Shown: positions 132 to 48,311, counted from the first letter of the whole stretch. The stretch: DNA of 63,229 bases, filler included, from Aduncisulcus paluster (GCA_024181965.1; 6 parts of 6 records of this genome joined end to end with filler, not necessarily neighbours in it); one strand, 5' to 3'. The notes: generated by a model not told the origin, from the letters alone. Numbers and translations: made by a program.

Positions 132-2885
132 ATGCAGAGCACTGAAGAGTTGACAAAAGAAATTGAAGTACTCATTGTTTCAATCAAAAGAACAGACTCT
201 CGACCTGCCATTAAATCCCTTTATGAAGGATCCCATTCTCGTCTCAAGACTATCTTTGATGAGTTCACTTCTTCACCCTCATCTGCTGTCCCCTCCGCTC
301 GAGATCTGTTCGCCCTTTGTTTCGAATGTTTGTCCTTGTTCGTGAAGCATAAAGTTACAGAAGACGATGGAACTCCAGATGAGGATGATTTTGAGGTTAT
401 TCTGGATAGTTCTTCCATCCAGGATATGATTGACTCTTTCTTGCCTTCAATGATCCGAGTTGAAGCTATTCTGAGAGTTGAACGAGAAGAAATGAAAGAA
501 ATGGGAAGAAGAAGAAGGAGCTAAAACTGCTGAATCTAGAGTGAATTCCATTACAAAGACATTGTTCAGCATTCTCAGTATCTCAACAACAAGAAGTGTT
601 CTATCTCAATGTATTGACATTTTCCCCCAGATCTCCACTCTTCTCTCCAAGATGTTTATTCTCGGCCTATTTGAGAAATTTGATGATTCTTTTGTTGAGG
701 ATATCCTCCTAACATGTAGGAATATTGCATTTGCCAAAGATGATCCCACCAAGAACTCCCTTTTATCCATTCTTCTCCCCCATATCTTGCCATGGATGAA
801 GAAGTATCCTGATAAGGAGTCCTTTTTCTTGTGGATGAATATCTTGAAGAATATCACAAATGATAAGAGTAACATCGACTATGATAAAGATCGTTCTTCA
901 CAACTTTGGTTTGTCTTCCACCCTGTCTTGGCTATTATCAAGGACACTGCTTCCAAAGGTATTACATTTGATGATGATGCTGTAATTCGTTGTTTGTGTT
1001 TCCTTGGTAACTTGAGTTGTATTCCTTCCCAAGCTATTGAAGTTCATGATTGCATTAAAGATGGTCTTATTGATAGCTGGTTTGAGATAGTGAAGAGGAA
1101 GAAAAGTGAAGGACTGGATCCTAATTGTTGGGGAACCATATACTGGTCTAATCTCATTTCCATGCTATCCACTGTTCCATCAATAATTCCTCAACTCTCT
1201 CCCAAATATGATGCCAACATGGAGTGGTGTAAGAAGAATGGAGAATGGAGTGGATATTATGCAAGATATCTTGGTAATTGTTATCCTTCTCTCAGAGAAG
1301 TTCTCTGAAGAAATGGTCTGGATTAGTTGAAGCTATTGTGAAATGTCCTGACTCAGAATCATCCTCAATTCTCTACCACAAACATCGAGAAGATATCCTT
1401 TCTGTCTTCCTTGCATCCCAATCAAAGAGTGAGATTGAAGAGCACAAGAGAGAGATTGTTGTTTGTGTTGAGTGTTTAGATCGGTTTGTTGGACATACTA
1501 TTGCTGGAAATCATATCTGTCTCCCAATACCTGATCTCAACAATCTCATTGACACTTTCATTGATCATCTTTCAAGAATTGAGGAGGTTTTGGAAGAAGC
1601 TGTTGATGAAGTGTATTGTACCATTTGTGTTGATTATTCTTTCAAAGTTAAAGATAAAAGAGATTCTTTCCTTCTCAAGATCTTTTCCACTTTCCATCGA
1701 ATTCTTGAGAGAGGAAGCAAGAAGAGGTTGGGTCATTATATTGTCCTAAATATACTGAAAACTCTCAGAAACATCTCTTCTTCTTCCTCTACTTCCACTC
1801 GATCCTCTATTTTCACGCTGATAATACCATATATCAAGGATTGGTTGAGGATGTATAATGATAATGATTGTTATGGAAAATGGATGTATATTTTATCACA
1901 GATCACCATATTAAGTGATGGTAAACCCCCCAACACCTCTCTTTGTTCTGAAACTTGGCATCTTTTCCACCCTGTTCTTGATATTGTTAAGAGAGAGTTT
2001 GATTGGGATAAGATTGTTGAGGATGATAAAAATAATATTACATTGTTCTCTGATGATCGTGAACAATGTTTGGGATTCTTCTTTCACTTGTGTTGTGATC
2101 CTACACATGCTATTGAAATATATAATAATGTTAAAGATCTTCTTGAAGGGTGGTTTGAAGTTATGAAGAGGAGTGGACCGGGAAGTGTAGGAATCTTATA
2201 CTGGTCCAAACTCATTTCTATGTTCTCCACTGTCCCATCAATAATTCCTCAATTATCTCCCAAATATGATGCCAAGATGCTATGGTGCAACAGAGAAAAA
2301 TGGTATTGTTCGATCCCATCTTATAACCAATACCTTTCCAACATTTCCTCCTTCGTATTTTCTTCATATCTCTCTTCAACTCTTTTCCATTCTGTTCCAA
2401 TGGTTTCATTTCTCCCATCAATTGAGACATCTTTGTGTCCTGAGAAAGATGGATATTCATACGCTTCCCATGTATGTTCTGTTATGAATCTGCATAAAAC
2501 TATTCCACATCGCAAAAACAAAATCTCTTGCTATCACGATATTATCAGTGGAAAAGAAATGCAAATCCAACATGTTCTTAAACGTGATGGATCGAGTTCT
2601 CAAGATATCCTCACACACTCTTCTCTCATCCAATACACTTCTCCTCCCCAACACATGCTTGTTAAGATGCCATTTGATGATGAGAGATCCTTGAGACAAT
2701 CTGTGTATGATCTGATTGAACGCACAGGTGGAGGTGTTGAAGTGATGTTTGAACAGGGATCATTATGTTGTTCGTTTGAAGAATACGATCAAGAAGCATG
2801 GAGGAATAGAATGGAAGATATTGAAGAAGAAGAGGAATCTGAAGAATACTATAATTTTGAAGAATCTTTAGGAGACTGGCCTTGA
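132..2885 (+). pseudogene. Frameshifted member of a lineage-specific helical (ARM/HEAT-like) repeat protein family, split into three ORFs (132-524, 541-1308, 1278-2885)
   Basis: The ORFs are contiguous in different frames. The motif W.KLISM.STVPSIIPQLSPKYDA occurs in both ORF2 and ORF3. Removing 14 nt at 1293-1306 fuses ORF2 and ORF3 (..YPSLKKW..). A second shift lies in the GAA run at about 500-520. Confidence 0.6.
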
Positions 2886-3790
2886 AGACATTAGGAAAAG
2901 AAAGAGGAGAATATATTGTTGGAGATATCGACGTTTTTGAGAAATCCAAGGAGCCACCTTGAAAAGTTCTTCTCATCCAGCCTGGATCTCCTTGAATTGG
3001 TTTGCTTTATGATTATTCTAGGTCTTTTTTTCAACAAGATTTATTCTTGTAAGTTACATACAACTTGTAACAGAATTTTTGTACTTCCAGAAGTTCTAGA
3101 GTTCTCTCACAAATATAAACAATATTTATGCAGAGATATTGGGGGAAAATGGGAAAAAATGCTGAATAGATCCAACCATAATCAATGATAATTAATCATC
3201 ATCACGATTTGTAAATTACAAATTGTAATGATTGGAGGTTCTTACTAAGATCATCGAAAGATAAACATATTATATTAACAATATTATATTATTCACATTA
3301 TCAATTTGATAATATTTCAAATATGTCAAATAAACAAGGAACGAATAGAACCAATTTGAACTCATCAAACTGATTGAAAATTAACCAATAAAAAACCAAA
3401 CCTAACAAAGCCTTTGTTACAAAGGAGAAAAAAAAATAATGAACGAAAAAATACGAATAATGAAGCCACAATATCTGTTTTCTTTCAACCAAACAAGTTG
3501 CTCCGTGATAAAACCTTCAAGGAAGTCTTTATAGAATCGAACATGGGCATCGAGGTGTCAGATCATGGGATTCTAAAGCANNNNNNNNNNNNNNNNNNNN
3601 GAACGAATAGAACCAATTTGAACTCATCAAACTGATTGAAAATTAACCAATAAAAAACCAAACCTAACAAAGCCTTTGTTACAAAGGAGAAAAAAAAATA
3701 ATGAACGAAAAAATACGAATAATGAAGCCACAATATCTGTTTTCTTTCAACCAAACAAGTTGCTCCGTGATAAAACCTTCAAGGAAGTCT

Positions 3791-5412: not shown

Positions 5413-5624
5413 TATTGTTAAACAAGAGAAAATAAGAAAAAAATTCAAAACTTTTGCTACTTGAAGTTAGTTCGTTATATTTCAAAAACATAATGATTAC
5501 AACTTACAATCGACGTAAGGACAAATTAATAAATTGTTATACATAAGCATTTATTTTATTTTTTGACATAAGACGATGCCATCACAGTGTGATTACATCG
5601 AATAGAACTTCTATTGAGTTTAAC

Positions 5625-8600
5625 TCAAGGATCGAGATAGATGGAACATGTTGAATCTGTCAATTTTAAATTTATATCTACCCCAGAGAAACTCCAAGGC
5701 TTTGATTCTTTGTGTCCAAATTTGGGAGGTTCTTCGGCAGGAGGTACTCTTGATTGAGCAAGCGAATATCCAAGTGACTCTCCATTCCTAACACTTTCCC
5801 AGGTATTTTGGCATACTTTCCGTTCTTCACACACAGAACCAACAGAAAATACGTTTTCAAACCCTCTCACTTGTTGGGAAGGGTAAGTGCAAAGTTTTCC
5901 GTTCAAATGCCTTGCATTCGTCAGAATTCCAGTATTTGGTGATGTTTTTGCACCCAAAACGACAATATCTGCCATAAGAGTGGAGTATTTATCGGTATAG
6001 AAAGGCATTGTATAAAGATCTTGTAAAGAATCATCTTCTGAAAATATTGACATTTCTCCCCTTCTTCCCCTTCTTTCTCTTCCACTTCCCTCCAATTCAT
6101 CAAGTGAATGTCCATGAACATGAACATGTTCAGAATAGCTTGTCCTTCCCTTTTCAATTCTCTGTCTGCTTTGAATCCGAATACATACTTTCCCTTTACA
6201 GCCAATATCAGTAGCGTTCCATATCTGTGCACCCGTATAGATACTTATCCTGTCACCGTAATGCTCAACCAGAGCTTTTGCAACCATGTGTTTGATTGAA
6301 GGTTTTAGATGGAGAGATGGGAAGAAAAGGGAAGGAGAGGGTAACTTATCTCCCACTTCTTTCACTTCTTTGTCTTGCACTTCATCAAGTTCTTCTTCAC
6401 CAATCGAAACACTGCCACTCTCTTTCTCATAATCTCTTCTTGCAATGGACACCACTTTCCCTTCCTTCTTTGCTTCAGGTGATTTCTCCTCCTCCTCCTC
6501 CTCCTCAGAAGCATCGGAAGGCTTCTCCTTTGTTAGTAATGTTCTCTTGTATGATGCAGACAAAGTATCCTCTTCTTTCACTTGTGTAGGTTTGTGAGAG
6601 AGGACTGGTTTGTCTTTGGAATGGATGAGAGAGTGAGATTCACACGATATAAATGACACATGGGCCGTTGGGATGAGACGAAGAACACTCTCTCCAAGAG
6701 TAATTGATTCTTCCCCCAAACCAACAATGACGATGTGAGGACGAGAAATATGAGTGCTCTGCGATGCAGACAATGAAGCTTGGCAATCACAGAAGAGACT
6801 AAGAAGAGCGTATTTCAACTCTGACATATTCTGAGCGCATGAAGAGAGTTTGAATACAACTCTTCGACCTCCAATAAGACGTGTACTCAGTGAATCCAGG
6901 CACTCTGGAGCATATACAGAGGATCCGGTGGCAATAACAAGCCTGTCAAAGGGGATATCACACGTTTTCCCACAGGTACAATCGACACAATGGATAGTGT
7001 TTGAATACTTATTGATGGAAACGGCTCTTCTCCCGCTCAAAAGACGATATTTTCCAGATCTGAGTACTCTTCGCTCTCTTAAATAACGTTCAAGATTGGC
7101 AAATCGAGGTTCAGCAGCCAGCACAGACAGATCGAGGGGGNNNNNNNNNNNNNNNNNNNNTTTTCCCACAGGTACAATCGACACAATGGATAGTGTTTGA
7201 ATACTTATTGATGGAAACGGCTCTTCTCCCGCTCAAAAGACGATATTTTCCAGATCTGAGTACTCTTCGCTCTCTTAAATAACGTTCAAGATTGGCAAAT
7301 CGAGGTTCAGCAGCCAGCACAGACAGATCGAGGGGGTAGGCAAAAGGAAGTGTATCCTGAGATATGACAGTGCAATCACAGCGTCTGGATGACATCATGA
7401 GGCGGAGAGCAGTGGCGCATGCACTCATTCCACTGCCGATGATGACTACCCGTCCATCATACTGTAGATGGGTGGGAATACTGGGGAATTGGGTGCCAGT
7501 CTGAAGGAAGGAGAGTGGAATGAGGCCTTGTTTACGGACATTTAACTTTGAAGGTGGAGATTTCTTCGATAATAACCTTTTAGAAACGGCCGGAGACTGT
7601 TCAATTGCCGTCAAATGCCGGAACATGGAAACACCTTCTTCACTCTGACTGAACGATGGGAAGGAATGAAAATCGATTCGTTCACGAGGAGAAAAGGGCT
7701 GTTTCGAAGGTGTGGTGCCCGATTCCCGCAAAAGGGAAGAAGAAGAGGTCCCATGTAAGGCACGACGATCACTTTGAGATATCTTGGAATGGGAGAATGT
7801 AAAATGGAGTGTTCCAAGTCCTGCTGCATTGTCAGTGGTCATTTTCCTACTTTTAGGCCTTGAAACTTCTTTGTCCACATCATATGGAATGATATCTTTG
7901 CCAGTGACCATTTCTGACGAGAGAATACTCAAATTACGATCTTTCAGAGCATAAAGTCGAAGTGGTGAGTTTAAATCGACAATATCTTCCATGGATAATG
8001 AAGAAGTGAATGATTTGAACAAATACTGATCATATATTGAAAGCAGAAGACCATAATTGCAATCTTCGGTGATATTATGGATTCTTCTTGCTAATGGAGT
8101 AAAGAATAAGGAAGAGATGGAACTAACTCGAGTAGATGGATCACAAGTAAATGAGAAACACAAAATAGACTGCCAAATTGTATAGAAAACAGAATAAATG
8201 AGTAAGGCCGATATAAGCTCGGCGGAGGGGAAAGCTCCAAAGAAAAAGAAAATCATTGTCGTAATAAGGGCTTTTGTCCCAATGAAAGAAAGTGGTTGGG
8301 CTAATGACGAGAATGGAGATTCACTTTTACAGATATTGGATGAAAGTTTATATCTGGCTCTTCTTATCATTTCAGAATAGGTGAGCTCTTTAATAGAATC
8401 AATTAAAGGCGGTTTATGACTGAGAAAATGCAAAAGGCAATACAAAAAATCATCAATAAGGAAGAGGAAGATGAACAATTGCCACGTTTCAGATTGTCTA
8501 ATATAATATGGGAATGCATTAAGCAAATATGGGAAAATCTCATCTTGTTTCCCGAGTATCTGGAGTTCAAAATAAGGCTTTGAATTCATAATGAAAGAAG

Positions 8601-11758: not shown

Positions 11759-14752
11759 ATGAATTACAATCAGGAGACGCCATTTCTTATTAGAAAACAT
11801 GTCCAGAATCACATGGATAGTCTTAAAGCAAAATATGCACCTGTTACTGCCGAAGTACTGGAAGGAAAGATCAAATCTTCAATGAAACCTAGTTTATTAG
11901 ATACGCCACACTCTATTTTTAAGAGGTTATCCACTGATACTGTTTCCCACACCACTATACCCAGAAAAACTACTCCCATCAAACGACCTATTACGGCCCA
12001 TCAATATTCAATATTTCCAGAATTCGAATCCATTCGTCAGAAGATATCTCGGATTAAATCTCGTCATATGTCTCCCAGCCCTCCAAAAGTTCCAAAGCGA
12101 AGTACGCCTGACGAATTTCAGTTTTCCTTGGAGATTCCGCCTGAAGATGCATCTCACTCAATTATTTCACAATCAAAATCAAAGATACCTGATATGAGTC
12201 AGTTATTTTTTAGCCATAATGAGGTTCTTGAAACGCCTCCAGCCACCCATCGAGAATCCTCATATTCTCCGAGCCCCCATGGAGATTTGTTCGAAGATAG
12301 GAACGAACATGAAATGTGGCAAAGAGAATTACGAAAAATGGAGGTCGAAAAGAAAAAAATTGCAAAAACTATCCAATCTGAAACGAAAATCCCTCCATCA
12401 CATAATCCTCGAATCAAACGAGCTAAAAAAGAATGCAATTCAGGTAAAAAAGGACTTTTTGGGGATAAAAAGGAGACAATTTTACATGAAGAAAAGAACA
12501 AGGCATTGATTACTACAAAAGTGAGACGGGATGCTAAGAAATGGGATAATGTACTTTTAAAAATGAGGGAACAAAAACTTAAGGATGATATAAAGCGAAA
12601 TCCAGCTTCAGTTTTTTCGCCCTCATCATCTGCTCATTTTCGGACGAAACCCTCGAAACCGCCTCATTCTTCTCTTCCTGCCAAATTTCAGGATTCATCC
12701 CACAACGATATTGGACTATTTGAACCTGAACGACGAACAAAACAAATCGATAAGGGTTCTGATAAGGGTTTTGAGAATGTTGTTCATGAATCAAATTCTA
12801 TTTTCCAATCTGGAGAAATCTCCATGACTCCAACATGGCTTCAAGGTTCAGGAATGGTTGAAGTCACATCAATTGCTCCATTCAGTGCCATAATTCAGCA
12901 CAAAGATGCTAAAAATAGATCAAAAGAGCAACATTATCCTCAGAAATCATATCATCACCAATCGTATGGTGCTAAAACTACCAAACATTCACGTTTTTCG
13001 ACTTCCTCCCCAAACAATCCACTTGGATATTATTCGACTGAATTTGATGCTCTCGAATCCATTCCCTCCGTTGTTGATAAGTATAAGACCTTAGCTTCTT
13101 CCAAGTTTCTCAAATATAAAAGTCAGGCCCACTCTCGGGAGCCCTCGTTTCATGCTGAACCATCAGGATTATGCGGAATTGTAGATGAGGTCGAATACTC
13201 TCCTTCTCCTTCATACACTCAGATTAATCCAGATGACCCAATGAGAGCCAAACCCCCACACCCGCACCATTCCACTAAACCCCCCCTTAAACTTTCAGGT
13301 GATTCTTCGATTATAATATCTGATTATCCGGACTCTACCATCATGAATCCCAGGTCTATTATTGGAATGAAAACCAAACGATTGGAGCAATCCAGCAGCA
13401 GTTCATCATCAACTCTGATATCTGGGGCCAAAAGTCGCTCAATCTCAGCTTCTTCTTTTATTTCGTTGCTCTCTTCTCCACACACGTCAGCTAAAACGGT
13501 TTTAAACGATGTAAATTCAATATTTAAACGACCCTCCTCGCTTCGAACTTCCATTTTCCCCCTCGTGTGCATGTGGAAAGGTGAAGTTGTTCACGAAGAG
13601 GAGAAAGAGAAGGAAGAGAGGGAAGAAATGGAAAGAAAACGGAGAGAAAGGGTGAGAAAAATACGATTAAAATATGATTCCGATGATATTAGTACTCTGA
13701 AAACCCTACCAAACCCAAATTCTACTATATTTTCAGAGAACAATGGGTTAAACTCCTTGAAAGGAACAGATTTCGATCATAAACATCATAAACAATTTTC
13801 ACATGCACAACCTCATTCAATTCAAATGTTTGGAGAATTTATTTCTCACTCAGAATCTATTTTTAGCCCCCCTTCAACACATCTTAGCAATTCCTTCCTT
13901 AAACATCAGCAAAAGGATCCAAAGAGGAGTTTCCGATTGTCATCATACATGAGTAATTCTTCTCTTGGAACTCCTACTCCCAAGCTTCTTCAGAGTGGAA
14001 CTCACCATATGTCCACACCAATTGACTCGTCCTCTGATGTCAAAGACAAAGGAAAGCAAGCACAGTTTATTTCACGTGGACAGAATAATATGGTTTTACG
14101 GAGTGGATTTGAGCCAGAATTAAGGCAATATCATGGAACCTCTGCCTTGTCGCATACTGTTGAAGATTTGTCCCATTTCGAAGCTTCTGGCACTCAGAGA
14201 AAACCATCTTCTTCAATCGTATTGTCTCAACTGAGATCCGGGATGAAATAAATCTAGTCTAGATTGATCTATCATTGATAGACTATCAAGAACTTTGAGA
14301 CAAGGGAAGAATTCAAAATGAGCATCCCGATTCACGAGAAACTGGAGGAAAAGCGATGGAAAGAAGGAGAAGGAGAAGAACAATATAAAGAAGGAATGAG
14401 CAAAGAAGGGGGCGATTCACAGGATACTCGGGTGAAAGGAAGAGACAATCGCTCACTTATTCGTGATCTTCAACTTCATCCTTCGGTTCTTACCGGCGCT
14501 ACCGGTGAAATGGACATGATCGTTGAAAAAACAATCAAAGTCGCCATTCATATTATTTCGAACATGTACATTGAGGGAACTCAACCGTCGTTATTGTCCA
14601 CTCTGCGATCATGTGTATCTGATCTCTGCAAGGAGATATGCTGGGTTGTTTCAAAGGATTTCGATCAGACAAAGTTGCTCAGATCTCTAAAATCTGCAAT
14701 ATCTGGAAGAAACATTAGGGACCAAATTAGGAAGCGAATTGAAAAGATCTAA
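11759..14752 (+). CDS. Hypothetical Ser/His-rich low-complexity protein; ORFs 11759-14251 and 14318-14752 are probably one gene interrupted at 14249-14281
   Basis: Both ORFs are in the same frame, and only a palindrome-rich 33-nt stretch with stops separates the open frames. A GT..AG intron at 14219-14281 (63 nt) is possible. Confidence 0.5.
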
Positions 14753-17367: not shown

Positions 17368-18042
17368 GAATAGGTGGAATAATGTTCGAGTTATGAGTGC
17401 TATTAATTGCNNNNNNNNNNNNNNNNNNNNAATGTTGATGCCAAACATCAAGAATATTTCTTTTCAAAGCACATCCTGGAGGACCTAAATCGAACAATCC
17501 GGCCATACCTCCATAGATCTCAAAAGAGGGGATCACAAAGAAACGACGTTTCAAACAATCGGCAACAAGAGCTCTATCAATCTTTTTTTCCATACCTTCT
17601 CTCAAGAATAGATTTTGGCAATCAACCATGAATAGGTGGAATAATGTTCGAGTTATGAGTGCTATTAATTGCTTAAATTTATGTTATTTTTCAGAACTTA
17701 AATTATTTTCAACATTAAACTTCTCCAATTAGATGTTAGCGAGTTGATTGGTTCGATTCACCAAAATTGTAGGCTATTTTATCTCCTAGTACAATAATAT
17801 TAATTAAAATTTCATATATAATAAGATTCAGATTGCTATTTGTTCACTATTTATTAAATTAAACAGTGAGAGAAATTTTCGAATTAAAGCGGGAATTGAA
17901 AGACTACAGAAACAAATATTTCAATTTATGTTATTATTAATAAGTCAAGAACAAGATATTTTTTCTATTTTGTTTGTTAAAGCCTTTTTTATCATGCAAA
18001 AAATGTTCACCAGTTTTCCTTTGACATACAAATTCAAATTGT

Positions 18043-19485: not shown

Positions 19486-19703
19486 ATTTATCATGACTAA
19501 TGATGATCGCAAAATTTAAACTTTAAAGTGACAACTTGCACTTCCATGATGGAAGATAAAAAAGAAATAATTTTACTATTTTATTAGTCTACCCTAAAAG
19601 TATTTTTTTCTATTTTTATAGTACAGTATAGTCGGTCTTGGAATCACAGGTGATTTCCTTTCGAAATTCGATTGTTGAAGGGGGGTTTGGACAACATTTT
19701 TTG

Positions 19704-25467: not shown

Positions 25468-25901
25468 TATTAGTTTAACATTATCGCATGGATTAGTATG
25501 CAAAAGATGAATAAACAAAAGAAATTATAACAATATGAAAGAATAAGATGACAAGAAGAAAACAAAGACATACCAAGCCATTTGTTTTCCTTAGACTATC
25601 AAATAGACCCATATTTCAATTCTAAATCTAACTTCTATTCAATATTATTGTCTGATATAAAAAGTATTGTTTCCAAAATGCAAAAAGGGGGGAAACTCTG
25701 AGAGAAAATCAAAATATAATGATCTGCGAGAAATAATGAATATTTACAAAAATAAAAATGAAATCTTCATATAAAAAGTATATATTAATAACATATGCCA
25801 TTACTAAATAAAAGATATCTTTTCCTTTCGGTCAATCTAGAGTCTCATTTTCTCGACATCATAAAACCATATTTTTCATATTTTGATAATTTCTCCTTGA
25901 A

Positions 25902-26838: not shown

Positions 26839-27063
26839 GAATATGTTTAGAGATAATCTAAGCTATTCCTTGCCTTTGCGTTGATTTACGCATAGGACTT
26901 CCGATGACCCTTAATTGTGTCACAATTTGTGAACAAATTTGTCTTTCTTCAGATCTATTTGAGATTCTATATGTTGATTTATAAGTATTATAATACTTCT
27001 AATCTAATACTATTATTGATTATCACTAAATTTATTATATATATTAAATGAAGACCATTTTCA

Positions 27064-30000: not shown

Positions 30001-33000
30001 CTCCTTCTTTCTTTTGTTCATCCCAACCTTCATCGTCCCAACCAGCTCCAAACAAATCTCCTTGCTGTTTCCTTGACTTCTTGTCGCCTTCCTTTTCATC
30101 TTTCCCCATTGAATCTCCTGTCTTGGATACATCACCGGCTTCTCCTTCTTCCTGTTCATCAAGAAGGACATCTTCAAGGTCATCTCCAAGCTTTCCAAGC
30201 AAATCTTCTTCATCCACACCCAAATCATCAACAGAAGTCTCGTCTTTCCACTCTAATTGGCTCACACGATCCTTAACAAGTTCATGGGCACTCTCATAAC
30301 AATACACAGCACGTAAAGGCTGTCCAATTGAGAGGAAAGCATGTGCCAGAAGGACATAGGACCGACAAGATGGACATGACTTCACAAATGACCAGAAACA
30401 AGCAACATACAGATCTTGAGAATGTTCTATTTTTAGATATATTGTACTCAGCATCATCAGAGCGACTATCTTATATGTGGATGATGAAGTATGGATGTGA
30501 ATAAGGTGATGTTCAAGAATAGGAACAAACGATGAACAAGAGAAAACAACAGGAGTTACAGAAACATTACCAGTCATAATTGAACCGTTTCCAACACCAG
30601 AATACGCTTTCAAAGAAGCATTAGATCCTGCGGATTCTGACATACCATTAACTTTTCTCTTTTCTTCTTTCTTCTTGGCACCATCCCTCAGTTTCCTTTG
30701 TCTCACACCCTCTTCAACAGCCTTCAGTGACATTACACAGATGCAGAAGCACACGTGGGAGAATGGGATGGCAGAAGAGTCACAATGAATGTGAGAGGGG
30801 GAAGAGGAAGTGGAAGAATTCAAGAGAGATGGAGATAAGGCACCAAATCCAACTGTACTCATCCTCAATTTATCAGATATTTTACCACTTTCAGTACGAC
30901 TCTTCACCAAACTATCAAGTAAATGCTGTCGGTATCGTTGAGCATGAGAGTTGGACAGAGCTCCAACAGGGAGGACAGGTAAGAATGAGGCAGCGAAAGA
31001 GGAGGAAGTGGATGTTGAAGATGCATGCATTGAGCGTTTCCCACGGTATCCTGGGTTACCTTTCCCTGCACCACGTCCACCAGCTTCGACATCATAGCCT
31101 TCAACTCCACCTGCAATCAAGACAACACTCACCCAAACACTACCAAGGGAGAAGAAGAATAGATCATGCAGACTGCTACTAAGGTTGCCTGTCGTAGCGA
31201 GAGACCTGGAGAGTGAGGCAGACAGAGAGGCTGCAGGAGATGATTTAAGACGTAGATTTGTTGAAGCACGTGCTGCTCCACGTTCAAGCCTATTCTTCTC
31301 TTCATAGCAAGCAATTAAAAGAGAAAAGGGGGAGTTTGTTGAAGATGTCATGAGAGAGAGAACATCAAGGCCAGTAGCATTGAAACGAACTCCAGAACCC
31401 TGTTTCAAAGCACCAGAGCTCGAAGAGACTCCAAAAATCTTTGAATGCAAATCGGTGAGTTTATCACGGTGTTCCTTCCATTCTCTTTCCCATTCTTTGT
31501 TATCAGCAATCAGCATCGTTGGTAAAGTGATAGCGGACATCAAGATCTGAGAGAGCATATATGCGGGTGTTTCAGTGATTGAGAACGACTTACTCAGTGC
31601 GATATCAATGTACATCTTGGCATCATTAATGGAAGTTTTCGCGGCAGTTGGTACACTGGCCAGACACATATCACTGAGATCAACGGAAGACAGAGACACA
31701 ATGGCCAATAACACGAGATAATACGAATCCAATGAGTGCAAAATATGGTTCTTGAATCCTTCACTTGAGTCGGAAGAAGCGGATGACACTGATGCAGAGC
31801 CACGTGAACGTGGCCCAGACCCACTTCCTTCCCCTCCTTCTCTTCCCCTCCTCATGATATTGTTGTACTTGGCCACCCCTTTCTCAACACATCCAGCAAT
31901 GCTGTGTGAGAAGCCAGAAAGCAAGGACAGACACATTGAACTCCTACCAGAGAGATAATGCAGCAGAAGGAGGTGAGAGAAGAGACTGACAGGCGGAGGG
32001 ATCACCGCAGAAGTCAAGGAGGATGAGAGAGCTGAGGAACTAATTGAAGCACCAGAGAGACCACCAGCAGCGTTAGCCAAACTCCTAATCTTACTACCGA
32101 TGCTTCGAGAATGCTTATTGTTACCATTGGACGAATCAAGCTTACTTCCCGTCATGTTGATTTGTTGAACCCCATCAATACTCTTCTCAGATCCCCATAC
32201 GTCACTGCAGAGGTTAATGAGGTCCATGACGAGGGATAAAGGCGGAGAGAGAGGAGAGGAGAGAGAAGAGGAGTGGAGAGGAAGAGGTTGAGTGATGGAT
32301 AATAATGTGTGAATGAGCGCAAGGGGAAGATGGATGTCGAGGAATGCAAAGAGAGATAGAGGGGAGTGACGATGGAAGACAGAAGGGAACTCATTCGACG
32401 ATATTGATTTGTGGGCTTGGACATGCAGAGATGGCATATCATTGACATCAGAGGAAGAGAGATGATGTCCGAAAGACCCAAACAACACATCATAGGCCTC
32501 ATTCTTCAATTTGAGGACATCTCTCATTCCTTCAAAATAAACTCCAATCCAATCTTTGATCCCATTATTGTAAGAATACATGCTATCACCAGAATTAAGA
32601 CCTTCTCCAGCGTGGGAAGCATGTGAGGCCACTCTGGGAGGGGTTAGAGTGGATGCAGCATTCAATAGAGTGTATATTAATGGGATAAGGGTCAAGGATG
32701 AAGGGAGAGCAGGAGTTGGGGAAGCTAGATCTTCAGTCTTCAAGACAGGAGACATCAAGCTATCATTCATGGGCTTTGAAGGGGATTTGTCAAGCTCACT
32801 CCCAGAGTCAGAGGATGAATACAATTTATGAAGACTTTCAGATGTAATCTTGTGACCGCTCTTCTTCTCAATCTCTAACATCTTCCTCTCGGCATCCTTC
32901 TTTTTCGCACCGCCAGCTAAAAGACCGGCAAGAACTGATCCAACGACCTCATCTGGAACCCATGTTCCAATTGAAAGTGGCAGAAGACCAGTATGAGATG

Positions 33001-35236
33001 AGAAAATAGGGGTGGAATCATGTATCACATGCGAAATAGAAGAATGATGGTTGGAGTTCAAGGCCATCGAACTCAAACCCATATCCCCAATTCCAGGACT
33101 TAGGCCCAGATCATCAATATCCAATGCACCGCGTGATTCTGTGTGTGTGGGCTCGGTAGCGGTATCGCCACCCATCCTGTTTTCACTCGATGACACTCCC
33201 CATTGGCGTTCACATTGTTTCAGCAAAGTGTGCAGAGCATGGGCATTGTTGTAGGCTACAAGACTCTCCTGGAAAGCTCCACTACGGAGCTGAGTGCGAC
33301 CAAGAAGGAGGTAGAGATCCATTATAGCTGAGATAGCGTGGATAGGTGAGTGAAGAGAGATGGAAGAGGGGGAGAGAGGAGAAACTACCATTACGTTGGA
33401 GGCTCCGGATGAACACGTCGAACAGAAACTATGAAGGGATTGAATCAAGGATGGAATTGGAAGAGGACGATCATTGGATATAGTTAAAACAGCATCTTCA
33501 CCTGATATCTCAGGTGATTTATATTTAGAATCATCGAAGGAATCTGATCTAAATTTAGAATCTTTGGTGGTCTTCTCAGTAAAGGATACAGAAAACGGGT
33601 TCACAGACAAACCATCATCGAAGTCCATGATCGAAGATCTCTTCTCGGCCTCCTCTTTTCTTCTTTTTTCCTCTTCATCTTCTTTGAGAGTGGCGTCATC
33701 ACCACCACTAAAGGATACTCCAGCGCCTTTCCATCTCATCTTCCTCGAACGTTCCTCTTCCTTCTCTCGTTCTGAGCCAATTGAACACACATTGTCAAAG
33801 GATATGCCAATAAGATGTGCTATTTTTAGAATTGTGAGAACAAGATCGGAATGGACAGCTCCCGAAGAGCCATGTCCAACTCCCATAATACTCCCTGCCG
33901 ACTTCCTCTGTCCTCCAGCACCACCCGTAGCACCGGTATCAGAAGAATTGTTGCTGAGTGCTGAGGATGGTACCAAAGCAAGAATTGAACTTAGAATACC
34001 ACTCAAAAACCCAGGTGGAAAGAGAAGCAATGGAGCCACAGAATCAACAGAGGATGATGGAATTATCTCATCGAATAAACGTTGCAAGAATGTATGGATA
34101 CGTGATAAATAACGAACAGGGGAGAGCAGAGAGAAGGACGAAGCAGGCCCTGAAGTAGCAGAGGCGAATGCTCCCCTGCGTCGAAGAGGAGAGCTAGGAG
34201 AACCCGAAGACTGGAATTCTGATGTGTCACCACCCTTTTCTTTATCAATTTTAACTCCGTTATATCTTTCCAAGCAAGAACACAGACATAACGACCACAG
34301 ACAGGTCAACGTCGTTAGATCTGTTTGTTGGTGGCTCGCATCGGACATTGTCTGTGTTGTTAGAGTGTATGCCTCAACAACACAACCACATCCAATCGAA
34401 CACTCAATGTGGAGACGCTGCAAAATGGAAGAGGCAGGGAAGACAACTTTGGCCTGCTTTACGAGATATAAACATTCTTCATACATCCCTAAATCTTTTA
34501 AGAACAATATCCACGACACAATTGCGTGAATAGAAGAGAATGCTTGCTGTGTGAGAGCATGATTAGAGAGTTTTGTGTATTCAGAAACTACTGCTCGAAT
34601 CTTAGCAAGTTGAACATCTGATTTACGAAGGCCATTGGAGGAATATGCAGCAATAGAGGTAGAATTTAATGATGATGGGACCTTAGGAGCCATAGAAGAT
34701 CGCTTACTTGATGGGATATCAAAGAAAGCAATACTATCTATAACATCATCGAAATTCAATGATTTTGAAAGAATAAATGCTTTTGTTGAACGAATTAACA
34801 ATAAATCTGTTGTATTAGAAGCTCTAACCAATCTATTAGCCTTGTCAATAAGTTCCATTGCAGAATACTGGTCATTGTTGAATAAAAAAACAAGTTTGGC
34901 GGCTCTGCACAAGTCATGAAAGGTAGCTCTATCTTGGAGTCTATCGATTTGAGCTGATAAATGAGAGAAATCATCACTACCTTCTCTTTTTCTTGAATTC
35001 ATAACCTTTTCAATGACATATAAACCATACGTTGCAGAAAGTACAAATTCAGGAAATGTTTTGATTGAAAGAAATGTTGTTTGAGATGAAATATAATCTA
35101 AGGACAGGTATTCAGCGACAGCTCTCCAAAAAAGAACTTCAGGATTGCTTCCGCGTTTAATAAGTTGGTTAGCAGATGATATAGCTATTCCATAATACCC
35201 TTCCCATATTAAAAATTCTATATTGGCATTCTTCAT
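27064..35236 (-). CDS. IFT139: Intraflagellar transport protein IFT139/TTC21B-like TPR protein, greatly expanded; frameshift at about 29850
   Basis: The N-terminus (IEFLIWEGYY...GSNPEVLFWRA) and the C-terminus (HYEKAWELC...LGYRLAFNLMKA..CVQVCSDVIAKWPEY.GIK..IL..A..LLR) match the ends of TTC21B. Confidence 0.8.
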
Positions 35237-36014
35237 AGGTGTGCGCAAGGAAGAAGGATATGAAATCTTAAAAAGCATTGCAATATTATTTATTTGGGCA
35301 ATTTCATCGATATATTATCTGATTATAGACATATTAACTACTTATATTATTTTTCATGCTGTAATGAAGAAGTAAACACTGGTCTCAGACCAATCTAGGC
35401 TAGATTTCAATTTTGTTGAAAGATGTTTCACAACATAGGAACTTAGTTCGATATAAATCACCAGGATTTCAGAAGATTATACAAGTTTATCCTGTTGAGG
35501 TTTGATTCCTTTGTGAGTAATTCAATTTCCGAAATTGACCGAGTTGGTTGAAAACTCTTGATTTACAATAGAATCCTGAATTTTATTTGAGTAAAATAAA
35601 TAATTATATACGAAATATTTTAGAAGTTTCAGTAATTGCTGTATTATTGATGTTTGAAAGAATTGCTTAATTCTTTGAATTGGAACAGAGCTAATAGTTT
35701 AAAATTACGTTGTATAACATTGCCTATGTTTTTACTATTACGAAAATAATTTTATATCTGATATTCTGAAGTTTTTCAATTGATTCTCATACTCGGTCTA
35801 TTTTTGGATGTTACCTTCAATCTTCTCCACCATATAGCATCGTTTGACGCATATTGAGTTTGTATGTACTAATAATTTTACCTATTTTTCTAAGTGTAAA
35901 ATATAATTTGTCTTATTTATATTATTTTCCATCTCTATCCATCCAAAATCTTTTCCTATCTCTATTTGTCGCTATTTCACCCTGTCAATTTGCTTATCAT
36001 ATGTTTCTTTAGCT

Positions 36015-36356
36015 ATGGTATGAATTATTTTTAATTTCTCATTTGATATTGTTTTTTGGAATCCCGTTAACCCCTTTTTTTTCATTTTTCTAAAATTCCA
36101 ATTTATTTTTAGGCCTCTCACAAATCTCTCCAAAGGAAGCTGAAGCTTGCCAAAGCTGCTCGTATCAACCGTGAGGTTCCCCGTTGGGTTCGTCAGAAGA
36201 AATCCATGAAGGGAAAGTCGTATGTTATTCTAGTTTTTCCCACTCCTTTTTGAATATTATCAATTTAAATTTATATTTTTCATCCATCTATAAACATATT
36301 TTAGCGTTCACAACACCCACCGTCACCACTGGCGTAGGTCTCACTTGAAGCTGTGA
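36015..36356 (+). CDS. RPL39: 60S ribosomal protein L39 (eL39), 53 aa; exons 36015-36017, 36113-36219 and 36305-36356
   Basis: Spliced translation is MASHKSLQRKLKLAKAARINREVPRWVRQKKSMKGKSVHNTHRHHWRRSHLKL. Both introns are GTATG..TTAG. Not present in the ORF track. Confidence 0.93.
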
Positions 36357-36514
36357 GTTTGATGAGGAACAATAAACTCGTAAGAAAAGAACAAGAAATT
36401 AAAACCATATAATTCTTTATTTGTTATTTATTTGTGTTTATTTATTGTTTTCTTTCTGTAACAAAAGGATAATTTGTGATTGAGTTTTTCATTGCTATTT
36501 TATCGTTTTGCTGG

Positions 36515-37693
36515 ATGTGGCGTTTTGATGCCGAGGCGAAATCACCTCTAAAATCAATAATTTGTGGGGAGCATTATGTTTTATATAAAAGTCCTGCTTT
36601 AGTGGCGGCCATTAGTCAATTCATTACTGGAAAATGTAATACAGTCATTTCTGATGATATTCAGGGAGAAAGAACATTCATTCAAGTATCAATAATTATA
36701 AAGGGTACAAAACACGAGGCAGTTTTTACCTATAATAGAGTTAAATCTGATATTTCTGATTTTCGCCTCTATCGATCTGTCCTTCCCAAAAAGGATTCTC
36801 TTGTCGAGGATAAGTTTCCCGATTCCACAAAATATGAAATCGCATTATATCTTCTTGGGTTCGAGTTTTTTGATGCTCTTACCAAGCTTGTTTCAGAAGA
36901 CTATGAATCAATTTTATTTTCTCATATTAAGTCCATTTCTCTCTCTTTCTCTCTTAATGTTCACCCTGGCTGTGGATTGGGTACCTCCGCTGGCCTTGGT
37001 GCGGTTGTTTCAGCTCTCGCATATAGCATTCGCCAAAAACTGGAAAGTCTCCCTCTCTTCCGTAATATTCCCCATATCCCAGAGTATACTTCCTTTATTC
37101 TCAATCGAACGATAACATTTGATAATATGATCCATAGACCCGCGAGTGGTGTTGATGCCTATGCCGTTGTCTTAGGAGGGCTTCTTGTATATCATATGGG
37201 TCGGACTCCATCCCGTCTCCAATCCAAATCTGTGTCCAAAGAACTTGATAAAAAAGACGAACTCCTTTGCTTCCTTATCGATACAAAAGAGGAGAAAGAT
37301 ACTCGACTTAGTGTTAAGCTTGTCCGAGAATTGATCGACAAAAGTCCTTCATTTAAAGAAGAGGTCGAAAAGGTTGCAAAGAAACTAACCAAGGTATTGG
37401 CACATCCAAAGGAACAGATTGGAGGATTTATTGAGGAGAATGGACTCGTTCTGGACCAGTCTGTTTCGACTCTCGAAAAGGCTGGAGTTATAGGGAAAAA
37501 TTGTTTATTCTTAAGAAAAGTGCTTAGAAAACATGTTATTTGTGTTAAATTATGTGGAGGTGGACCTGGTGGGTTTTGTTTAGCATTTTTGTGGAAACCT
37601 AAAGAGAAGGAATTTCTTTCAATTTTAGAATCATATCATTTCGATGCCATGAAAATATCACTGGGTGTTTCGGGATGTTTCATTGTGAAATGA
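36515..37693 (+). CDS. MVK: Mevalonate kinase (GHMP kinase)
   Basis: PLKSIICGEHYVLY, PGCGLGTSA, HRPASGVD and KLCGGGPGG motifs. Confidence 0.8.
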   Translation: MWRFDAEAKSPLKSIICGEHYVLYKSPALVAAISQFITGKCNTVISDDIQGERTFIQVSIIIKGTKHEAVFTYNRVKSDISDFRLYRSVLPKKDSLVEDKFPDSTKYEIALYLLGFEFFDALTKLVSEDYESILFSHIKSISLSFSLNVHPGCGLGTSAGLGAVVSALAYSIRQKLESLPLFRNIPHIPEYTSFILNRTITFDNMIHRPASGVDAYAVVLGGLLVYHMGRTPSRLQSKSVSKELDKKDELLCFLIDTKEEKDTRLSVKLVRELIDKSPSFKEEVEKVAKKLTKVLAHPKEQIGGFIEENGLVLDQSVSTLEKAGVIGKNCLFLRKVLRKHVICVKLCGGGPGGFCLAFLWKPKEKEFLSILESYHFDAMKISLGVSGCFIVK

Positions 37694-39116
37694 GAGCATG
37701 AGATTTCAAATCTGACAAGTTGTCATATTTTACCAAACTCAAAATCTATTTTGAAGCTCTCTTATTCACCATATTGGAAAAATAAATTGATATCCTATTA
37801 ATATTGAGCCCATGGATTTTATTTATTTCTGGCTTAAGTCAAAATGAATTCTATACCATCAAATGAACCACAAAGTGGCTCCACCAATGGTGGACCACCA
37901 TATATTACCACCTCGAAAGGCAATATAACACAGGGGGTGAAAAATAAGTGTTCATTGAGCATGGTCAAGAACAGGCCGCTTAGAAGAGCCACCCAATAGA
38001 ACCTCCTGAAAAATGCACTAGCTTTTTACCGGTTCATCTATTCCAAAACGTCAGGTTGGGAAGACATCCACTGGGATCAAGTTCTCCATAATCAGAATGG
38101 AAATCCATTTTGGAACTAGAGCAGGGGCTTTTTCTTAGTTTACCCGAAATAAGTTATTTCAGGAGTTGAACTCCCACCCAACTCTCCACAAAGAAGATCA
38201 CATGGAGAGCAAAAAAAGGAAAAAGATCTCGATGAGATTGAGATGACAAAAATAGTTGATATGACAACTCAGTTTGTCAGGTTACAGGCTGTAAACTGTA
38301 AAGCTTCAAACTGTTAGACTCTAACATCAGTCGGACTGAGTCTAATAGACTCTATCATATCAAAAACAGAAAACAGTTTAAATAGAAAATTATAATACGT
38401 TACCAAGTATTTCATCAACAAAAATAACGATAACCTTTCACAATATCGCTATATAGATCATCCCTTGAATGATGCAAATCCAAACGGTTTACATGAGACT
38501 TATTTCAAACATCAAATTGATTCCATAAACATTATTCAAATATTAATGGAAATCAAAATTTTTAGGGCGAAGGAAACCGGACAAAAATGCCCGCATTTTG
38601 GTCACCAAGATTTGAGAGATTTTCTACAAACATAAAAACAGACCAGCCGCTACCGATGATCCCTTTTCCTTGAATTCGTTACTTCCCTTGGCTGAGGATA
38701 ATTGGCAGAAAGTGTTTATTTCTGTCGAACACTGTTCTATGGCATAAGGGAAGTCTTCTTCCGGAAAGACTTCGCACAGGCTCCCTGTATGCAAAAGAAT
38801 CGACTTCGATTGAAGCTGAGTTGCCCATGGTGAAACTTTATTTGACAAACCAGGCCGCCAAGGATCTACAAACGAGAATGACTCACAAGAAACACTTTTC
38901 TAATGGCCTTATACGTGATGGTAAGTGTGGTAAGGATTATTCGAGATGCAATGATACAAGTCCGGTGCCTGCCACCTTGGCTAAACGTTGTATCCCTGAG
39001 GATGGCTAGGGAAATCTATTATTCGTAAAAATCATATCAAAATGTTTGACAAATCTGATCAATGTTAATCACTGTTTTGTCATCGAAAAACAATAATAAT
39101 AATCAAAACAATCTAA

Positions 39117-40309
39117 ATGTCATCAACTTGCCACTTTAGTGCCTTTGAGATTGTCAACAAATCACATCCCAAACGATCCCTCCCAAAATCACTGAAATCG
39201 CGGCTTCGTCATCATCGAACCAACACCAAAGAAGCTTACAGTATCCGAGATAGACAAATTGTTGAGAGAAGAAATGACCACCTTGACTCAGTTCGTGGAA
39301 GAGCTGCAAGACTTGGCACTTCAAGGGTTGAACATGCAATACTGAAAAGGAAGAAAGGTGAGTGCATCTCAATGTTCGGACTCCCTGTGTTTCATCACGT
39401 GAAAGCTTGCTCATTTTGCTTCAATGAAGTGATGCAAATCCCATATATTAGGAAAGATCATGCTCCCAAGAGACAGGAGAAATATATGGAGAATAGACAA
39501 GAATGGAGGGATAAATTAGCAAAAAGATATCACATCAATGTTTCTCGTCATCCTGAAAAACTTGACAAAGTATTTCAGTTGTACAAAGAAGTGAAGTATT
39601 ACAAAGACATGCTTGCTCATAACAGAAGACGAAGCCTGTGGCTTCTTGAAAGGAAGCGAAGAGCCCACGAATGGGGAGTTGAGAGAGTTGTTGTTGTGTT
39701 GAAAAGAAAAAAGGAAATTGAAGAGAAGAAGAAGGCAAAAATTGAAGTAGACAAATTGTTGAGAGAAGAAATGACCACCTTGACTCAGTTCGTGGAAGAG
39801 CTGCAAGACTTGGCACTTCAAGGGTTGAACATGCAATACTGAAAAGGAAGAAAGGTGAGTGCATCTCAATGTTCGGACTCCCTGTGTTTCATCACGTGAA
39901 AGCTTGCTCATTTTGCTTCAATGAAGTGATGCAAATCCCATATATTAGGAAAGATCATGCTCCCAAGAGACAGGAGAAATATATGGAGAATAGACAAGAA
40001 TGGAGGGATAAATTAGCAAAAAGATATCACATCAATGTTTCTCGTCATCCTGAAAAACTTGACAAAGTATTTCAGTTGTACAAAGAAGTGAAGTATTACA
40101 AAGACATGCTTGCTCATAACAGAAGACGAAGCCTGTGGCTTCTTGAAAGGAAGCGAAGAGCCCACGAATGGGGAGTTGAGAGAGTTGTTGTTGTGTTGAA
40201 AAGAAAAAAGGAAATTGAAGAGAAGAAGAAGGCAAAAATTGAAGAAAAGACAAGAGATATCCAAGTGCCAGAAAAAAGTCCAAAATCACCCATTGCAGGA
40301 GGAATTTAA
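39117..40309 (+). CDS. Hypothetical basic coiled-coil protein, disrupted in this assembly by a 497-bp tandem duplication
   Basis: Collapsing one copy joins the start at 39117 to the ..KIEEKTRDIQ..GGI-stop ending at 40309. Confidence 0.45.
39251..40244 (+). repeat. Tandem duplication, 2 x 497 bp, apparently identical and frame-shifting
   Basis: TAGACAAATTGTTGAGAG... occurs at 39251 and 39748. Confidence 0.9.
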
Positions 40310-42328: not shown

Positions 42329-42504
42329 TTGGATACCTGGTAAGCACAAAAAACACGTTCAGATTGTTTGTTGATTAAAAAAGAAAGATAAAGAATCAAT
42401 TTCGCTTTATAAAGATATGGATAAACAAACTTTTACGTTTTTTGAAAAAATAAAAACAAAATTCAGGAGACAATGAAAAATCGGGGATTTGAACACAAAA
42501 CTTA

Positions 42505-45135: not shown

Positions 45136-45562
45136 AGCTGATTCAAAGAACGAAAATAAATAATATTCAATTGATTGACATGTCAATGACATGTGAGATC
45201 ATATCACTCATAGAAAATTTATTCACGGAGACACTAACAAGAATTTTTATGGCAGTGGCAGTGGCAGTGCCAATTTGACACTAATCTTCTTCAAGAATTA
45301 AATATTTCTCCAAAGTCGAAAATATATATTCAATCTCTTGATGATATGCACCATGTAATCTCAGTATCGTCAGACAAACTCTCAGAGATTCCCAATATAG
45401 AGTGTAAGGATTCTCTTTGGCAATTACGTCGGAGTATACACTCCTTGAATATTAATAGATCACCTATTGTGCTCATAATATTGATAAAACTGTCCAATAT
45501 GACTCCATGACGAAGATATTCCGTCGAAATTGGCTTGAATAGTCATTCAAACGTCCTAGAGT

Positions 45563-46618: not shown

Positions 46619-47509
46619 CTATTTCTTCTTTGGAGACGACAATAAATCCAAAATTGATCCACTAGTCCTTCTTTTACCGGTTTTTTCCACTGCTTTTGCA
46701 GGTGTGAGTGGTTTATATCCGCCACACATGAAATCAACTGGAGACTCACCCAAATCATGGAGAAGCCTCGTTATTTCAGTAAAACAACTCTCTTCCTTAT
46801 GAAAAGAGTCAACGGCAGGATGATTGGAGATTGAAAACTTCACTGGACAGCCAATTTTCTTAGCCTCAACTTCAACAGTTTTCATGAGAGTTTTCTTCGC
46901 GATTCCTCCCCATAAAACACAAACAAATCCCTTTCCAATCTTCTTCCTCGCCTTACAAATAGTTTGAATAGTGTGAATAATAAAAGGTTTCCAAGCGGTA
47001 GTGTGTTTTTTTAATTCTTCAGGATCTTTCCCTCCAAAAGTTAGTGCAGTATTGAGCCAAAGAACACCTTGATCACTCGTTTTTTGGAACCATTCGGGCG
47101 GTTCTGGAAGGGAGGTATGAGTGTAGATTGTGTCGCGAAGAGCAGCAACTTTGCTCGAGGGTTCTGCAAGATCCCTCGATCTGAGGACAGCTTTGATTAT
47201 GTTTCTTAGTGAGGGAGACATGGGAGAGGACCAACGTTTGACAAGACCATCATAAAATGCAACCCCCATGGCACTATCTCGACGGGGATAAGGATCTTGG
47301 CCAAAAATCAGAACCTTCACATGTTCTGGACCAGCTGGAAGAAATTTAAATGCATTGAAGACCAAATCTGACCGAGGGAAATATGATTTCGGAGCGGAAG
47401 AACCAATAAAGTCAATCAGAGATTTTGAGCTCTTAGATTGTAAGAGAAATTCATCTAAATATTTCCTCCATGAATCAGGAAGTTCATATTCACTTTCTTT
47501 TAATGTCAT
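46619..47509 (-). CDS. UNG: Uracil-DNA glycosylase, family 1
   Basis: KVLIFGQDPY, SPSLRNI, QGVLWLNTALT, VLWG and NHP motifs, with a basic C-terminal NLS-like tail (SPKKK). Confidence 0.88.
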   Translation of the reverse strand: MTLKESEYELPDSWRKYLDEFLLQSKSSKSLIDFIGSSAPKSYFPRSDLVFNAFKFLPAGPEHVKVLIFGQDPYPRRDSAMGVAFYDGLVKRWSSPMSPSLRNIIKAVLRSRDLAEPSSKVAALRDTIYTHTSLPEPPEWFQKTSDQGVLWLNTALTFGGKDPEELKKHTTAWKPFIIHTIQTICKARKKIGKGFVCVLWGGIAKKTLMKTVEVEAKKIGCPVKFSISNHPAVDSFHKEESCFTEITRLLHDLGESPVDFMCGGYKPLTPAKAVEKTGKRRTSGSILDLLSSPKKK

Positions 47510-48311
47510 AGATGGTAACTCGGCGAAAAAAAAAAAAAATGAAAACTATACCAAGTCGAATAAGCAACATTTCTGAATTTGGAAATAACCATCATTCCTA
47601 AAAACTTCAAATGATAACTTATGAATATTTATATAATTGAATTAACAAGTTGATGCGGTATTTTCGCCCATTTTCAATTTTGAGAGCATTTGTAATTTAA
47701 TTTAATGGAGGATTAATAGCACGGTTTGATAAACTAAAACCTGAGATTGAGTTTAGAGGATGCTTTAGGAGTGTCGACTGCCTCTCAAAGTTATAGATCT
47801 AATAGATCTGATCTAGATCATATACTGTACTATACTATATTTACTATCCTATACTATGTCAGCATACACGGGTATGTGCCCTCTGCTGGTGCTCCGAGCA
47901 CTGATAGGCCCCTACATATTAATACCGCAAGACAAGTATACGGGTGACAATAGGTTTATTCCGGAGATCGTGTTCTCATGGCATGAGGCATGTACATCTC
48001 ATAGTATTGTTGTCATCATTAGGTATGAACTGGGGTTTACCTTTGAGGGATAACCGAGATACTCATTATGAGTATACCTCATTGAAAAGCCCTTGGCCTC
48101 AATCTCTGAGATCAAATAAAGTGTACGGTGTTAATTTTTATTTGTGAATCGTATTTTATAAATTGAGATTTTTGACCTGTAGTTAGCCTAACTATTTTTA
48201 GAATTATAAAGTCAAAAAAAAAAAAAAAAATCTCGGTTTTCCCCGATTAACATCTTAATAGAAAGCTTTTTCTCACTTTTCTTCTTAATATCATTAACAG
48301 AATAGATATAA

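Follow-up and report, generated by a model that had tools for sequence, protein, structure and literature searches.

Why should the non-coding DNA of a free-living protist be strewn with perfect inverted repeats that fold back on a single unpaired base? The question is raised by a 63,229-nt stretch of the Aduncisulcus paluster assembly (GCA_024181965.1), hereafter the window, which consists of six small scaffolds joined by 100-nt linkers (N44-TTAATTAATTAA-N44) and is eukaryotic in character, with a G+C content of 37.7% (33% in its non-coding DNA). A. paluster is a free-living fornicate (Metamonada; PMC9933649). An earlier note, made from the sequence alone, had described palindromes with a one-nucleotide centre throughout this stretch and read them as scars of a hairpin-based mutational process; the nine loci cited there do hold such palindromes, with the correction that the fourth in 47889-48112 (48102-48112) has 5-nt arms. 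We infer, with a probability of about two in three, that these palindromes are young templated inverted micro-insertions, that is, mutational scars without function, which would be laid down at breaks by a strand U-turn or hairpin of fixed geometry. Their number, their anatomy and one interrupted gene carry this reading.

To quantify the palindromes, we counted perfect inverted repeats with arms of at least 6 nt by their true spacer, removing nested cases, masking the linkers and the duplicated flanks of assembly gaps, and using 60 dinucleotide shuffles in 300-nt blocks as the control. The raw count at spacer 1 was 73, from which three copies inside duplicated N20-gap flanks were subtracted. 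The remaining 70 compare with 26.2 ± 4.6 (maximum 35) in the shuffles, so that the excess over shuffled sequence anticipated by the earlier note is borne out. Across spacers 0 to 8 the window holds 19, 70, 26, 10, 21, 17, 16, 22 and 19 palindromes, and at spacers other than 1 the shuffles gave 17.5-20.4 (observed 10-26). The peak is also present among longer arms, with 34 palindromes of at least 7 nt at spacer 1 vs 3-10 at the other spacers, and no spacer-1 arm in the whole window reaches 9 nt. A spacer-3 excess seen in our early counts was withdrawn; it consisted of spacer-1 palindromes recounted one pair further out, a nesting artefact.

The entire spacer-1 excess sits in non-coding DNA, defined here as the 16,876 nt (16.9 kb) outside ATG-initiated open reading frames (ORFs) of at least 120 amino acids. 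This fraction contains 51 spacer-1 palindromes vs 9.2 ± 2.8 (maximum 16) in the shuffles, while the other spacers yield 5-16 vs 5.7-7.5; spacers 2 and 4 lie mildly above the shuffles (about 3 standard deviations; spacer 4, 12 vs 5.7 ± 2.2), and spacers 3 and 5 show no excess. Coding DNA contains 19 at spacer 1 vs about 17 expected (other spacers, 5-12 observed), and its palindromes are chance matches. One of them, 48756-48768, was considered as an insertion and ruled out by comparison with a paralogue inside the window, in agreement with the absence of a coding excess. One large paralogous family is represented in the window by 23664-25403 and 48510-51683. The intergenic concentration claimed earlier therefore stands. 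The further suggestion that the process is a source of intergenic sequence was overstated, as spacer-1 palindromes make up about 4% of this fraction (667 of 16,876 nt). Their density on the three larger scaffolds is 2.0-3.6 per kb of non-coding DNA.

Pairing is perfect right up to the single centre base. No sequence is common to the arms in the whole window, and the centre bases are nearly uniform (C 19, T 18, G 17, A 16). Among the non-coding palindromes, arms of 6, 7, 8 and at least 9 nt occur 24, 21, 6 and 0 times, a distribution that fits primary arms of 6-7 nt with chance extension.

Two compound arrangements recur far beyond expectation in 200 shuffles: chains of overlapping palindromes with centres 5-8 nt apart (7 vs 0.08, maximum 2) and abutting pairs with centres 9-17 nt apart (8 vs 0.085, maximum 2). 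The centres of a chain are spaced by exactly 7 nt in six of the seven cases and by 6 nt in the seventh. In those six chains an 8-mer, T, has the layout T1-7 + reverse complement of T + T2-8, which is 22 nt long and amounts to a net gain of 14 nt, and the remaining chain is built on a 7-mer; all seven present one local sequence in the order duplication-inversion-duplication (DUP-INV-DUP). The abutting pairs are of another kind, with left and right arms unrelated in all eight. Five of their joints overlap by 1-2 nt, one touches directly and two are separated by 1-2 nt. Some clusters reuse one local word in both orientations, namely TAGACTC (38315-38352) and TGACATGT (45176-45194). Apart from the chain in the interrupted gene, which is treated below, the principal loci are as follows.

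3207-3229: chain, T = TTTGTAAT, centres 3215 and 3222
3297-3324: abutting pair, unrelated, arms of 8 and 6 nt, overlapping by 2 nt
3403-3425: chain, T = AACAAAGG, with an assembly-duplicate copy at 3665-3687
5581-5628: three palindromes, the last two abutting with a 2-nt overlap, reaching the stop of the minus-strand ORF that ends at 5625
14251-14289: palindrome AATCTAG T CTAGATT, followed at a distance of 2 nt by a chain, T = TCTATCAA; the block comes immediately behind the stop of ORF 11759-14251
19515-19555: two palindromes, 30-56 nt past the stop of a Tc1-like ORF (18043-19485)
26913-26932: chain on the 7-mer ATTGTGA, centres 6 nt apart, between convergent ORFs
35380-35406: abutting pair, unrelated, 1 nt common to both
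35522-35538: single palindrome with 8-nt arms
37701-37725: abutting pair, 1 nt common to both, 7 nt past the stop of ORF 36515-37693
37880-37901: chain, T = TCCACCAT, at the edge of a repeat of about 11-fold depth, with a variant joint at 37886
38146-38174: two palindromes separated by 1 nt
38282-38352: four palindromes, three of them abutting, with TAGACTC in both orientations and CTGTAAA tandemly repeated
45174-45194: interlocked even and odd palindromes from TGACATGT
47795-48194: divergent intergenic region with a chain (47795-47815) and four single palindromes (47889, 47975, 48059, 48180)

Several smaller observations concern these loci. Among non-coding palindromes with 6-nt arms the centre is G or C in 17 of 24, vs 10 of 27 for arms of at least 7 nt. 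The 15-mer AATCTAG-N-CTAGATT occurs on two scaffolds (14251-14265, N = T; 35392-35406, N = G), maybe by chance among 70 palindromes. Read depth relative to the single-copy level is about 11-fold at 37.6-38.7 kb and 30-70-fold at 23.66-24.7 kb; from depth together with several variant joints, 37600-38940 and 23662-24733 are multi-copy sequences, and the former contains ten of the palindromes. The cluster at 38282-38352 sits in this multi-copy repeat, another copy of which has 33 other letters replacing 38258-38345.

The clearest view of how such a palindrome comes about is offered by a chain inside a gene.

132-2885, plus strand: gene of annotated protein P0121 (879 aa), which carries the chain
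1286-1308: chain CTTCTCT + reverse complement of the 8-mer + TTCTCTG, centres 1293 and 1300, a small inverted triplication

The chain lies where ORF 541-1308 ends and ORF 1278-2885 opens, and what has been inserted is the 8-mer of that site in reverse complement. Once 14 nt (1293-1306) are taken out, a single 776-codon ORF remains, which reads ...YLGNCYPSLKKWSGLVEAIV... across the site. The P0121 family has at least 48 members: a search returned 48 matches with E ≤ 1e-5, all labelled A. paluster except one, which stems from a eukprot transcriptome set. All six paralogues that we fetched are unbroken at the corresponding position. The motif ...CYPSLKKW..., identical to the de-inserted reading, is present in P0123, P0126 and P0128, with P0126 reading ...YLGNCYPSLKKWSGLVEAI... 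at the chain site; P0129 and P0131 are similar there, and P0127 is shorter but unbroken. Because removal of the 14 nt fuses the two ORFs and the paralogues read through, the comparison of these sequences identifies the chain as a derived 14-nt inverted triplication, an insertion that splits one gene. The annotated model of P0121 skips about 1227-1300 as an intron, the end of which falls inside the chain, and thereby drops about 25 codons that the paralogues keep. In an ORF-fusion test of 65 palindrome or chain removals, only the event at 1293 restored an ORF, the others being in non-coding DNA; taking out the block 14251-14289 in silico, for instance, did not fuse the neighbouring ORFs.

We estimated the age of the palindromes from their decay. 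Perfect 7/7 pairs in non-coding DNA number 27 at spacer 1 vs 0-8 at spacers 0 and 2-12, while pairs with one internal mismatch number 54 at spacer 1 vs a mean of 51 at the control spacers. The excess consists of perfect copies only, and the scars are therefore either young or quickly lost.

Whether the palindromes exist outside the published assembly was examined over 23662-39740 (16 kb) with contigs from separate assemblies of a DNA run (X1) and a second run (X2). We took X2 to be an RNA run, a guess supported by GT..AG joints at 36219/36305 that are found in X2 only. DNA record 7 covers 31269-37925, including the abutting pair at 35380-35406, with zero differences from the window. DNA record 5 (26805-29969) and RNA records 12 and 15 (26462-29969 and 36361-38111) show the same palindromes as the window. 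The chain at 26913-26932 is unchanged in DNA record 5 and RNA record 12, and the pair at 37701-37725 is present in DNA record 7 and RNA record 15. The same contigs bear on the earlier claim that palindromes concentrate at ORF breaks, which holds for 1286-1308 only. In the TTC21/IFT139-like gene (minus strand; ORFs 27064-29850 and 29729-35278), the break at 29729-29850 is a 2-nt assembly error, because all DNA and RNA contigs add two A after 29803; the corrected gene is one ORF of about 2,777 codons. The remaining breaks are N gaps or scaffold linkers.

The published data come from sonicated DNA, a Kapa HyperPrep library, HiSeqX 150-bp pairs and a MaSuRCA assembly (29.4 Mb, N50 4.6 kb, 11,743 predicted introns; PMC9933649). 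The window shows the following assembly features.

3581, 7141, 11507, 17411, 46450, 49227 and 57781: seven N20 gaps, with 176-286 nt identical (100%) on both flanks
20452-21279: exact gapless tandem duplication of 414 nt (100% identity) inside a RING-finger ORF
39251-40244: exact gapless tandem duplication of 497 nt (100% identity), splitting ORFs 39117-39842 and 39869-40309

The flanks of the N20 gaps are overlapping contig ends joined unmerged, and nearby sequence and features are therefore counted twice. The two tandem duplications are either assembly artefacts or very recent duplications.

Such an assembly raises the concern that the palindromes are a product of the library or the assembler, or else chance in AT-rich DNA, and it is true that duplicated gap flanks, exact tandem duplications and the error at 29803 all occur within this one window and that all data derive from one culture and from short reads. 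Chance is ruled out by the dinucleotide shuffles and by the other spacers. As for an artefact, contigs built separately from k-mers (DNA records 5 and 7, RNA records 12 and 15) show the same palindromes without differences, and a palindrome of 13-17 nt should not arise as a graph artefact, given that it is shorter than the assemblers' k-mers. The published method makes no mention of multiple displacement amplification (MDA; PMC9933649). We regard this explanation as scarcely credible; a library fold-back or MDA origin was what the earlier note had named as able to undo its claim. A functional role, in which hairpins or symmetric binding sites (e.g. 3'-end or terminator signals) are kept perfect by selection, would fit the dearth of decayed copies. 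It would also suit the proximity to stops, since 10 of 22 stop-bearing ORFs have a palindrome within 160 nt downstream and in four it touches the stop or lies at most 10 nt away, as well as the chain at 26913-26932 between convergent genes and the coverage of several palindromes by RNA contigs. However, the palindromes have no sequence in common, and pairing runs into a 1-nt centre that is unusable as a loop, which takes at least 3 nt; the natural loop sizes (spacers 3-5) show little or no excess. Nor is their position relative to genes constant, as they follow stops, lie in divergent 5' regions (six in 47510-48509 and three in 35279-36100) and disrupt one coding sequence, and the whole window gave zero Rfam or tRNA matches. 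A function of this kind is, in our view, very unlikely.

The earlier note had offered repeated local hopping of hAT elements, the transposases of which nick 1 nt into the flank, or else an unusual break-repair pathway. If a hAT-type or other hairpin-making transposon with an 8-bp target duplication were excised, hairpins would form one base off-centre on both flanks and open at a long distance from the tip, and the resulting tails, which carry the duplicated 8-mer, could anneal. This geometry predicts exactly T1-7 + reverse complement of T + T2-8, with the 8-nt register of six of the seven chains and a single-base centre throughout. Flank hairpins are described for hAT, MULE, Transib and RAG (PMC5499845), and hAT footprints, like P nucleotides, contain flank-derived complementary nucleotides at the joint (PMC3499496, PMC5499845). 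An odd centre and an 8-bp register are features of such footprints too. Against this, the flank-complementary tracts reported in PMC3499496 are 3-4 nt long, vs arms of 6-8 nt here. The abutting pairs lack, in all eight cases, the common 8-mer that a hAT excision requires as a target duplication on both flanks. The 28 different window ORFs scanned gave no match to a hAT, BED or hAT-dimerisation domain, and no such element or transposase is present in the window: a scan for terminal inverted repeats (TIRs) with 8-bp target site duplications (TSDs) returned one candidate, which spans a scaffold linker, and extending it to TSD lengths of 5-10 yielded nothing credible in the window. The hAT target consensus nTnnnnAn fits at both positions in one of six chains (judged by eye), and none of the papers searched joins Aduncisulcus with a transposase or with palindromes. 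Excision footprints are thus an unlikely source. Snap-back synthesis by polymerase theta, which the earlier note had offered as well, is a poor fit, as variable loops would be expected and the spacer is fixed at 1. With foldback insertion by polymerase delta or theta the palindromes do share an insert that is complementary, in reverse, to the adjoining flank, but they lack the varied loops that priming at inverted microhomology would leave.

We therefore return to templated inverted micro-insertion, which keeps the central idea of the earlier note, namely that the palindromes are scars of a process that copies the flank in reverse complement; the derived 14-nt insertion, the lack of a common sequence, the pairing that is perfect up to the centre and the lack of a coding excess all support it. 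The strand that is undergoing extension or sealing at a break or at a stalled end would turn back on one base and would then bear the reverse complement of the 6-8 nt just passed. A single turn would give arm-N-arm with a gain of 6-8 nt, and turns at both ends of one break would give two abutting, unrelated palindromes. Where two ends carry the same 8-mer, their inverted tails would be complementary and could anneal to T1-7 + reverse complement of T + T2-8, with a gain of 14 nt. Two routes to such a turn may be envisaged: covalent hairpin closure one base off-centre at an 8-bp-staggered cut, or a polymerase that takes the opposite strand's base at the junction and then runs back along the opposite strand. 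Since the single-base pivot and the 7-8-nt register are fixed, the geometry would be set by an enzyme rather than by free snap-back at chance microhomology. Inserts of 7 or 14 nt shift the reading frame, so that selection would clear them from coding DNA and scars would accumulate between genes.

Several points weigh against this reading. If the process were steady and neutral, decayed copies should have built up, yet they show no excess; one must assume either that the burst was recent or that scars are lost fast, through slippage or through cleavage of the hairpin. Known foldback and snap-back events use pre-existing microhomology and variable loops, unlike the exact 1-nt pivot seen here, and domain scans of window ORFs identified no enzyme for the process. 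Of the roughly 42 palindromes in excess, just one has a known ancestral state. No allele pair with and without a palindrome was found across 23662-39740, a comparison made on contigs with little heterozygosity; contigs can drop variants, and stretches that are uncovered or variant-free prove nothing. The sample of 63 kb is a small share of a 29.4-Mb assembly. As an outside control we used 34 metagenome contigs encoding RPS5 relatives (240.5 kb pooled), in which spacers 0-8 gave 90, 96, 74, 54, 51, 56, 61, 68 and 50 palindromes and thus no sharp spacer-1 peak, although this set is unmatched in composition and gene density.

The pattern belongs with the templated inverted insertions already known, as a variant that stands out for its density and its exact geometry. 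Foldback inversions at double-strand breaks in yeast, as described by Yu et al. (NAR 2024, PMC11724301), are alike in that the insert is the reverse complement of the adjacent flank and in that inverted repeats are created or lengthened at the repair joint. Most of them are below 14 bp, and capture of the second end proceeds by end joining that uses 0-5 bp of microhomology (PMC11724301). They differ in their start, which is at a pre-existing inverted microhomology with a loop (41 nt at the locus studied; PMC11724301). The A. paluster palindromes have an invariable one-base spacer and arms of 6-8 nt, often with a copy at both ends, and the non-coding DNA of this natural genome holds about 3 of them per kb.

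Template-switch mutations, for which we know of no description of a fixed 1-nt pivot or an 8-nt register, resemble the palindromes in other respects. In these events, replication switches for a short stretch to the complementary or the nascent strand, and nearby sequence is thereby copied in reverse complement (PMC5453318, PMC8794818); perfect hairpin-forming repeats can thus arise de novo (Loytynoja & Goldman 2017; Monttinen & Loytynoja). The accounts of great apes and other genomes differ from A. paluster in describing rare clusters of varied geometry (PMC5453318, PMC8794818). The chains share their DUP-INV-DUP order with small inverted triplications (SITs; Lei et al., Adv Sci 2026, PMC13334657), which, according to that study, are unstable and disappear when slippage takes place over the hairpin; instability of this type would explain the missing decayed copies in A. 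paluster. However, the SITs described there, which are linked to the loss of FEN1, have units of about 148/160/148 bp, with junctions of 6 bp and a spacer of 30 bp (PMC13334657). The units of the A. paluster chains measure 7-8 nt, far from the SIT size class, and their copies overlap by one base with no spacer.

A wider possibility, which we put forward tentatively, is that A. paluster has an active, fixed-geometry break-processing or replication activity that operates genome-wide and outpaces decay by point mutation, and that it leaves a mutational signature not described so far. Its agent might be a domesticated hairpin-forming DDE nuclease or a polymerase making a U-turn at junctions, and it would write inverted micro-duplications as well as 22-nt inverted triplications. 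Metamonads are reported to lack Ku70-Ku80 and DNA-PKcs, in a study that does not name A. paluster in its main text, and alternative end joining is present in Carpediemonas membranifera (PMC8516963). If they occur genome-wide, the palindromes may hint that organisms lacking classical end joining have an enzyme activity so far unrecognised. Elsewhere, in yeast, animals and tumours, templated inverted insertions are rare errors of repair or replication, compared with about three per kb of non-coding DNA here. If the pattern extends genome-wide, it would provide a clean natural data set on how a strand turns round at a break, and if the signature is indeed active, it would steadily disrupt genes and supply new sequence able to form hairpins. 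Given that an invented intron carries at least the P0121 model across its insertion, frameshifting scars may lie hidden behind some of the 11,743 predicted introns, and such introns may be annotation workarounds.

Two further ORFs of the window were characterised.

15493-17409: glycyl-tRNA synthetase ORF, 100% identity to an A. paluster protein
18043-19485: 480-aa ORF with HTH_23 and a Tc3-type transposase helix-turn-helix (HTH; Tc1-type) in a domain scan

From its domains, the latter is probably a Tc1/mariner-like transposase. A search for terminal inverted repeats around this ORF found none that were clear, and Tc1 elements are not known to make flank hairpins. ORF 52773-53885 was considered as TnpB/Fanzor on the basis of a weak Cas12f-TNB zinc-ribbon match and dropped when an Atlas look-up, at the level of a lead only, returned CAP-like proteins. 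The segment 26152-26849 is heterozygous: it shows about 29 single-base differences along with two small indels, all at roughly half the depth (about 4% divergence), and the next 11 kb show no heterozygosity. Finally, a small and very highly expressed gene lies at about 36110-36350, the translation of which reads, judged by eye, like ribosomal protein L39; it carries an 85-88-nt GT..AG intron (36220-36304), the joints of which appear in the RNA run only.

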